From contig CAZCOE010000023.1 of assembly GCA_964500525.1 (NCBI GenBank), forward strand, positions 1-58,713: a stretch of 58,713 bases of DNA, written 5' to 3'. Source of the DNA: an uncultured Clostridia bacterium (GTDB lineage Bacteria; Bacillota; Clostridia; RGIG7378). The translations under genes were made by a program, and so were the position numbers. Shown one piece after another: positions 58,376 through 58,713 of the stretch (the first letter of the stretch is position 1; each line of letters opens with the position of its first letter). The notes under the pieces are model-generated. The model was not told the origin of the DNA. It made no database searches and was given only the letters and a program-made list of their open reading frames with translations.

Positions 58376-58435
58376 AGTGAAGAGTGTGGCTATGTTCCTA
58401 TGGCCTCATTATTAGGTGAAAAGTGACAAGTTTCG
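58376..58435 (-). repeat. Locus E1 of the repeat family (degenerate units, minus orientation, pointing to cotS-like gene)
   Basis: The plus strand shows AGTGAAG AGTGTGG followed by CTATGTTCCTATGGCC, which is an inverted Box A matching 119-136. GGTGAAA AGTGACA AGTTTCG follows at 58415-58435. Confidence 0.7.
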
Positions 58436-58571
58436 AGAATAAATGAAAGCCGGGCCTCCTGATTTTCTATATCCGGTGGGCAAAATAGCGCACACTATTG
58501 AAAAAGCGCTGTAAGCTATATGCTCCAGCACTTTACAAAAACCAGGGTTCAACACTCTAAACTATAAAATC

Positions 58572-58704
58572 GATCATAGGATCATAGGGACCTGAACTCT
58601 TCACTATTCACTATTCACTATTCACTGGCGAAGCGGAGCTTCGCCCACTGATCATAGGATCATAGGGACCTGAACTCTTCACTATTCACTATTCACTATT
58701 CACT
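58572..58704 (+). repeat. Locus E2/E3 of the repeat family: perfect 55-bp direct repeat (Box A plus four heptamers) separated by a hairpin spacer, running to the window edge
   Basis: 58572-58626 and 58650-58704 are identical (GATCATAGGATCATAGGGACCTGAACTCTTCACTATTCACTATTCACTATTCACT). The spacer at 58627-58649 contains GGCGAAG-cggag-CTTCGCC. Confidence 0.9.
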
Positions 58705-58713
58705 AAAACTAAC

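Follow-up and report, generated by a model that had tools for sequence, protein, structure and literature searches.

A perfect 55-bp direct repeat at a contig end of an uncultured Clostridia bacterium as a probable member of a genus-specific mosaic repeat family

What are the two identical 55-bp units that close a contig of an uncultured Clostridia bacterium, does their array continue beyond the contig, and does it still change among strains? The window analysed here, i.e. the whole stretch of 58,713 nucleotides, is the entire contig C23 of a draft genome (113 contigs, 1.79 Mb, 49.7% GC, 98.5% complete). Genes were called as the greedily chosen longest open reading frames (ORFs), with exact stops and approximate starts. 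Units were detected with R1, a sequence-only family model built from 64 units across the genome.

The repeat units and the end of their array

Sequence comparison within the window showed that 58572–58626 and 58650–58704 are 100% identical over 55 nt, with a start-to-start period of 78. The coordinates of the original prediction thus proved exact, and both units matched R1 at E values of about 1e-19 to 1e-21. The features of the region are as follows.

57298–58290, minus strand: YutH/CotS-like, spore-coat kinase-like gene, 330 aa from the ATG at 58290, downstream of the repeats on the minus strand (weak Pfam APH match)
58376–58403, minus strand: degenerate unit remnant, comprising a Box A remnant and about 1.5 heptamers (R1 E 0.011, model positions 12–43)
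58415–58433, minus strand: degenerate heptamer remnant, weak (R1 E 0.19)
58436–58571, no strand assigned: core module, of which about 130 nt recur on contigs C54 and C65, each copy adjoining repeat arrays
58498–58534, minus strand: terminator-like hairpin AAAGUGCUG-GAGCAUAUAGCUUA-CAGCGCUUU followed by UUC (run of 5 U), from the MFE fold
58559–58571, plus strand: degenerate heptamer-like linker AAACTATAAAATC, the start of the allele-specific segment 58559–58704 (alignment of the window, contig C104 and metagenome contigs)
58572–58626, plus strand: unit 1, Box A (GATCATAG GATCATAG GGACCTGA) and the tract ACTCTTC, three times ACTATTC, ACT (R1 E 5e-21)
58627–58649, plus strand: S module, GC hairpin GGCGAAGC-GGA-GCTTCGCC (58627–58645), then CACT (sequence and fold)
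58650–58704, plus strand: unit 2, identical to unit 1 and last of the array (R1 E 1.9e-19)
58705–58713, no strand assigned: unique flank AAAACTAA (58705–58712) and, at 58713, the first base of the stop codon (complement of TAG) of a VanW-family gene (overlap with C104)

Tandem Repeats Finder resolved each unit into 2.1 copies of GATCATAG followed by 4.4–4.6 copies of ACTATTC, with period 7 at 58596–58626 and 58674–58705, and the heptamer pattern CACTATTCACTATTCACT (up to three mismatches) matched 19 times in the window versus 0.02 times expected. The 23-nt spacer at 58627–58649 had been expected to form a hairpin and indeed folds, according to ViennaRNA, into an 8-bp GC stem with a 3-nt loop, followed by CACT. 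The degenerate minus-strand units reported at 58376–58435 are real, in that R1 recovers them with weak matches, yet they are only fragmentary remnants. Similarly, the divergent geometry reported elsewhere in the window was recovered by R1 as pairs at 81–157 and at 24778–24869/25842–25857, although the last arm is weak.

Contrary to what had been considered, the array stops short of the window's end, at 58704, as established by contig C104 of the same assembly together with an independent metagenome contig. The final 20 nt of the window equal C104:154–173, and the first 81 nt of C104 match window positions 58470–58550 with one mismatch; on C104, these 81 nt are followed by a different 83-nt repeat segment, then AAAACTAAC and then the complement of a TAG stop codon. 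This stop codon terminates a 556-aa ORF on the minus strand (C104:173–1843) with VanW (Pfam E 8e-32), G5 and PG_binding_4 domains. Metagenome contig L145 (SRR15283109, another sample) carries the order TTCACTATTCACTATTCACTATTCACT, AAAACTAAC, TAAACAGG and so on into the VanW-family gene, which confirms that unit 2 directly abuts the flank. The right junction of unit 2 (three times CACTATT, AAAACTAAC, VanW-family stop) is thereby confirmed by L145, and the left junction of unit 1 is confirmed by metagenome contigs L122 and L123. The junctions between unit and S module and between S module and unit were seen in the C23 contig only; the unit count of two is the count as assembled, and identical unit–S units could be collapsed. 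That C23 ends at this point is due to two alleles merging in the assembly graph, not to a longer array continuing.

The intergenic region, 58291–58712, thus measures 422 nt, and the last unit lies 8 nt from the VanW-family stop codon in the stop-rich orientation. This true neighbour was found by k-mer overlap with C104. Synteny with the closest species was rejected as a guide to the gene beyond the window: the neighbour there is an oxidoreductase gene whose sole homologue here (74% identity) sits inside contig C58, and the gene order therefore differs between the two species. On the other side of the repeats, PF27663 (Spore_coat_YutH) was found on identical metagenome copies of the YutH-like gene, and about 65–85 nt upstream of its ATG are conserved in four of four species of the genus, with divergence beyond. 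Identical copies of the flanking genes occur in the metagenome samples SRR15283080, SRR15283109, SRR15283116 and SRR15283141. The segment 58300–58375 (including ...GCATATACATTAGC and TGAATAA) resembles a promoter of the sporulation-sigma type, and the repeats begin just upstream of it.

The 136-bp core between the remnants and the units had been described as unique, but is a three-copy module. It shares 88% identity over 69 nt with its copy on C54 and 92% over 36 nt with that on C65 (blastn), and a core profile searched against the genome with nhmmer returned three copies at E values of 1e-33 to 1e-43 and no other convincing match. Its hairpin, AAAGYGCTG-N14-CAGCGCTTT in plus-strand form, is the dominant helix of the minus-strand fold. 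The sole arm difference between the window and C54/C65 amounts to a U·G wobble on the minus strand and a C·A mismatch on the plus strand; this fits a terminator role for the VanW-family gene. The core hairpin is the probable intrinsic terminator of this gene. The two units, lying between the VanW-family stop codon and this terminator, are then probably transcribed as part of the 3' UTR, with the units antisense, and we infer that this transcription ends at the core hairpin. In such a 3' UTR, the antisense tract, (AGUGAAU)n, would present stop codons in all three frames.

A mosaic repeat family and its placement in the genome

A unit of the family consists of Box A (three degenerate octamers, GAnCAnnG GAnCRTRG GnnCCnnA), followed by about four CACTNTT heptamers ending in CACTG. 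Box A, with the consensus aaTCGAnCAnnGGAnCATGGGGACCAG, measures 24–27 nt and lies upstream of the heptamer tracts. In the 1.79-Mb genome, we counted at least 260 units of Box A plus tract, 313 heptamer tracts and 157 clusters. Tracts are two to six heptamers long, with four in 139 of the 313 and position-specific variants. An S hairpin (GCGAAGC..GCTTCGC) follows 84 of the 313 tracts versus 7 of 313 in shuffled controls; variants of its stem keep the pairing (GCGAGGC/GCCTCGC in nine copies, GCAAAGC/GCTTTGC in two). The family further includes a 26-nt hairpin, GGTACTTTTGGGCGGTCAAAAGTACC, in 28–34 copies, and several low-copy modules. The modules combine into Box A–heptamer arrays with a period of 63–65 and Box A–heptamer–S arrays with periods of 77–78 or 93, of up to seven units. 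A reading as CRISPR array was rejected, since the 23-nt 'spacer' is the family module that recurs after these 84 tracts and since other arrays are spacerless with a period of 63–64. By a permissive module count, the family covers roughly 2% of the genome. Besides, a tract lies within 300 bp of the contig end in 56 of 226 cases. With about 2% of the genome and a quarter of the contig breaks at stake, masking or modelling of the family seems advisable when this lineage is annotated or binned.

We also considered that the unit might be a structured RNA. At gathering threshold, Rfam 15 returned only a tRNA and an L21 leader across the whole window, and at E ≤5 the repeat region gave two chance-level matches far below gathering scores. 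RNAalifold found zero conserved pairs in the Box A plus tract unit, and the fold of unit, hairpin and unit reached a z-score of only -2.0 to -2.5; the structured-RNA reading was rejected for the unit. Pairing between Box A and tract was likewise rejected: 'TGG' variants do go together with 'CACCAT' heptamers (odds ratio 5.9, p 5e-5), yet subfamily descent suffices to explain this.

The family is largely confined to one genus. R1 matches numbered at least 117 in the source genome and at least 71, 26 and 3 in the other three species of the genus, and 57 other Clostridia genomes gave zero to three weak matches each, seven of them with any; those that were inspected were heptamer-dominated. Box A is recognisable in four of four genus species, whose YutH-like proteins are 73–95% identical. 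Comparison with plasmids and phages gave no match to the family. The family spreads to new gene-end sites: between gdpP and an ABC-exporter gene, units occupy about 260 nt of the spacer in the present genome, and the orthologous spacer of the closest species contains none. In front of the YutH-like gene, the other species show either a heptamer tract on its own, nothing, or an array of mini-hairpins instead. The last case is a contig of a sister species (L128, genome G001), whose first ~240 nt hold about five tandem units of 20–22 nt, each TAGTRANCCGC plus a small GC hairpin; it is a different local repeat that replaces the Box A units at the orthologous site.

Where do the clusters sit? The two ends of a cluster differ clearly in their relation to stop codons, bearing in mind that clusters within one genome are not fully independent.

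Clusters with the respective end facing a stop codon: heptamer end, 78; Box A end, 42 (binomial p 0.0013)
Median distance to the stop codon: heptamer end, 28 nt; Box A end, 191 nt (Mann–Whitney p 3e-8)
Within 30 nt of the stop codon: heptamer end, 43 of 78; Box A end, 4 of 42

Indeed, the stop codon of 20 ORFs falls within the first two heptamers, in 11 cases at the first TGA. Read as its reverse complement, (AGTGAAT)n, the tract contains stops in each of the three frames, and the forward strand is open in all of them. ORFs of 150 aa or more enclose only eight of the 157 clusters. Across the genome, then, the rule is one of heptamer ends placed at stop codons in stop-rich orientation; several apparent rules at single loci, such as units pointing to the next promoter, proved to be side effects. 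Accordingly, the orientation of the minus-strand remnants towards the CotS-like gene, to which the original prediction had drawn attention, is incidental, given that the heptamer end favours stop codons over gene starts genome-wide; in the array at 58572–58704, this end points toward the VanW-family stop codon. Selection explains the stop-codon rule most simply, with insertions at the 3' end being tolerated only if translation stops at once, though the anchoring could reflect function or targeting rather than tolerance.

With regard to geometry, 149 of the 157 clusters are uniformly head-to-tail. The mixed-orientation clusters diverge in eight of eight cases (minus, then plus, with Box A inside), and the diverging doublet was also found in two sister species. 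At C2:218–523 and C24:390–695, we noticed 92%-identical genes for 118-aa proteins of the 23S_rRNA_IVP/Avd-like four-helix-bundle type (PF05635, E 4e-23), each between diverging arrays; no heptamer tract was listed near a third copy (C39:21496–21780). With two of three 23S_rRNA_IVP copies flanked by arrays, the association is too weak, and the Avd-like gene was rejected as a partner of the family. On another contig (C68:262–773), a tRNA gene is centred in a diverging array pair.

Alleles and local turnover

Between the anchors ...CAACACTCT (58550–58558) on the left and AAAACTAAC on the right, the site exists in several forms; the window, C104 and the metagenome contigs share the left anchor and diverge right after it.

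Allele A (window; left junction also in L122 and L123): 146 nt, comprising linker, unit, hairpin and unit
Allele B (C104): 83 nt, comprising TCACTCTTAACTTTTCATT and one 64-nt unit of another subfamily (GATATAGTCGAGCAAAGGAACGTGGGGACCAG + AACTATTCACTCTTCACTCTTCACTATTCACT)
Third allele (L124, SRR15283141; left junction only): B-like start with one extra TCACTCT

The segment 58559–58704 is thus a hypervariable site within the population, with at least three alleles, and its turnover is real. As to the original prediction, which would have been refuted by an array that ends at once and is invariant, the array does end (at 58704) but the locus varies among strains, with allele B in the same assembly and a third left junction in a separately sampled metagenome contig. 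The alleles are not, however, set apart chiefly by how many units of one type they contain: A and B differ mainly by replacement with a unit that is about 84% identical (manual count from the sequences). The right junction in sample SRR15283141 (L146) is A-like. Neither A nor B has an exact copy at other assembled loci, the best being 96% identical. Three alleles between one pair of anchors make this site a usable case of repeat turnover within a population.

A second instance of shared and diverging sequence was found at the other end of the window. Positions 1–320 of C23 and of C26 (L137) share an identical, unique-looking first 141 nt with a terminator hairpin, continue into repeat arrays that are ~95% similar and then reach different downstream genes (wecB versus a minus-strand gene). 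This shared start represents either two strains with different gene order at the repeat array or two paralogous loci.

How do such differences arise? Duplication or homogenisation, as originally proposed for the two identical units, turned out, in local form, to be a real feature of the family. The best other genomic copy of the 55-mer is 96% identical (blastn against the own genome); genome-wide, neighbouring units share a mean identity of 0.78 versus 0.71 for random pairs, and at least 95% identity was reached by 10 of 101 neighbouring but only 13 of 2981 random pairs. Taken with the alleles, this similarity of neighbours points to duplication, unequal recombination or gene conversion on site, with heptamer slippage now and then. 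Arrays would accordingly evolve in place, through tandem duplication or unequal recombination, through gene conversion and through slippage of heptamers, and such local evolution would explain why neighbours are identical while distant copies diverge, and why one site holds strain-specific arrays. A simple 78-nt tandem duplication alone would not give the order unit–S–unit without a second S; this order would need either conversion of a pre-existing second unit or loss of a distal S. L124 has one heptamer more than C104, the single case of a heptamer length change, and the strong mode at four heptamers with position-specific variants argues against free slippage.

Could the perfect duplication itself be an artefact, in which a de Bruijn loop or a chimeric join via heptamer k-mers produced the spacer or unit 2? 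A tangled low-k graph region is suggested by the end of the contig, which lies 9 nt past unit 2 and overlaps C104 over 20 nt; the bin contains two alleles, and the unit–S and S–unit junctions come from C23 only. However, the left (flank to unit) and right (three times CACTATT, AAAACTAAC, gene) junctions were each confirmed in independent samples, no assembled locus holds an identical donor unit (best 96%), near-identical neighbouring units occur at ~10 other loci and, at 133 nt, the array would fit within a typical read pair. We therefore regard an assembly artefact as very unlikely.

The nature of the family and its relation to known repeats

We consider it probable that the 55-nt repeat consists of two neighbouring copies from a family of interspersed, non-coding mosaic repeats specific to the genus; the family itself is most likely selfish or neutral. 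Purifying selection would have shaped where and in which orientation its copies lie, and any effects on mRNA 3' ends would be incidental. We infer this selfish or neutral character against two observations: the similarity of Box A across species whose YutH-like proteins share only 73–78% identity would need sequence-specific copying machinery or selection, of which we found neither, and the kept pairing of the S stem variants suggests a structural constraint, which counts against a reading as passive DNA.

The same observations enter into the unlikely alternative that the arrays are functional cis-elements of gene 3' ends, in which a three-frame stop tract, a GC hairpin and Box A form a module for translation stop and mRNA 3' ends, acting as stabiliser, attenuator or binding array for a genus-specific protein (e.g. 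a cold-shock-type heptamer binder), with unit number tuning the flanking genes. REP elements close to stop codons affect translation in E. coli. Besides, proteins of the S1, Csp or CsrA type have been proposed to bind heptamer repeats close to gene ends (PMC4679880). Function would fit the median of 28 nt from stop codons at the heptamer end versus 191 nt at the other, the orientation bias of 78 to 42, the S pairing kept through double changes and the conservation of Box A across the genus. Yet we noticed no functional theme among the flanked genes, the arrays are absent from orthologous spacers of sister species, so that none of the genes relies on them, strains differ freely in the number and type of units, and purifying selection on insertion orientation accounts for the stop-codon rule alone. 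Conservation of Box A would equally suit units that are non-autonomous mobile elements of a MITE- or REPIN-like kind, with a diverging doublet (heptamer arm, Box A, spacer, Box A, heptamer arm) moved in trans to gene 3' ends. Mobility is consistent with filled versus empty orthologous sites, with copy numbers that differ strongly among sister species (at least 117, 71, 26 and 3), and with a diverging geometry that is fixed in all eight mixed clusters and recurs as a doublet in two other species. On the other hand, the sole match to a Y1 (RAYT/IS200-type) transposase in this 98.5%-complete genome, which was screened with PF01797 only, is a 47-aa fragment with no adjacent units, the comparisons of alleles and of filled and empty sites gave no target-site duplication or clean insertion boundary, and 149 of the 157 clusters are head-to-tail rather than doublets; we thus hold mobile doublets to be a doubtful explanation. 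It is less probable still that a non-RAYT, genus-conserved, sequence-specific machinery actively places the units at stop codons, where they would serve as a three-frame stop and 3'-UTR module. If so, strain replacement and duplication would amount to heritable expression variation of the flanking genes, and the family would be a repeat system directed to gene ends rather than passive junk.

The locus is an ordinary member of a new family that belongs to an already-known kind of bacterial repeat DNA, and not a new system. What it adds is a documented polymorphism within a population and the stop-codon anchoring rule; it reveals no new mechanism. Like the REP/BIME (REPIN) sequences of Enterobacteria and Pseudomonas, the family is a high-copy, extragenic, lineage-specific mosaic of short modules including a GC-rich hairpin, forms arrays right after stop codons in 3' UTRs as well as inverted doublets of fixed geometry, and breaks short-read assemblies. 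Unlike REP units, which are imperfect palindromes of 20–40 nt, its main conserved module, Box A, is non-palindromic, with only the optional S module being a hairpin; its arrays are head-to-tail instead of alternating, a heptamer microsatellite is integral to the unit and there is no sequence similarity. An association with RAYT was rejected as well, the PF01797 match being a 47-aa open-frame Y1 fragment on C69 without adjacent units, and no RAYT gene being present. Given the lack of RAYT and the non-palindromic core, the family is not REP in the strict sense. The Y1 fragment itself (C69:3995–4141; L001 1516–1659) is the remnant of an IS200-type transposase among small orphan genes.

Diverging doublets could supply the inverted arms of a MITE, although no target-site duplication was seen in the comparisons of filled and empty sites or of alleles. 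The BOX elements of Streptococcus pneumoniae (boxA-boxB(n)-boxC) are, like the present family, a modular intergenic repeat of a Firmicute, with an internal module in variable number and without coding capacity or a known mobilising enzyme. The likeness is one of architecture only; modules and sizes differ.

A last comparison set is formed by heptanucleotide repeats, namely the cyanobacterial STRR, the 'long simple sequence repeats' (Mrazek et al. 2007) and the TAACTGA repeats of Beggiatoaceae (MacGregor 2015, PMC4679880). Shared traits are tandem 7-nt arrays of two to six copies, an intergenic location, several hundred sets in one genome, a stop-codon content that depends on orientation, breaks in assemblies, differences between strains and an unexplained function. 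In contrast, the tract of the present family is welded to a conserved box of 24–27 nt and copied with it as a whole unit, abuts stop codons rather than start codons and has a different heptamer sequence. Because the tract is copied as part of the unit, it is not a free microsatellite. The family thus adds a Firmicute case to the long-unexplained heptanucleotide repeats, which come mostly from cyanobacteria, Bacteroidota and Proteobacteria.

When a wide genome collection was searched with (CACTMWT)3CACT, more than 120 loci emerged across many phyla; these are generic heptamer microsatellites, often mirrored and without Box A; their likeness is imposed by the search pattern and says nothing on the range of the Box A family. 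Such (CACTNNT)n arrays (L002–L121) occurred in Planctomycetota, Acidobacteriota, Bacteroidota, Campylobacterota, Chloroflexota, Cyanobacteria and Proteobacteria, often with mirrored arms, i.e. (AGTGANN)n, a spacer of ~20–40 nt and (NNTCACT)n. In Prevotella, the arrays adjoin a recurrent GCGGTAGCAAATT box.
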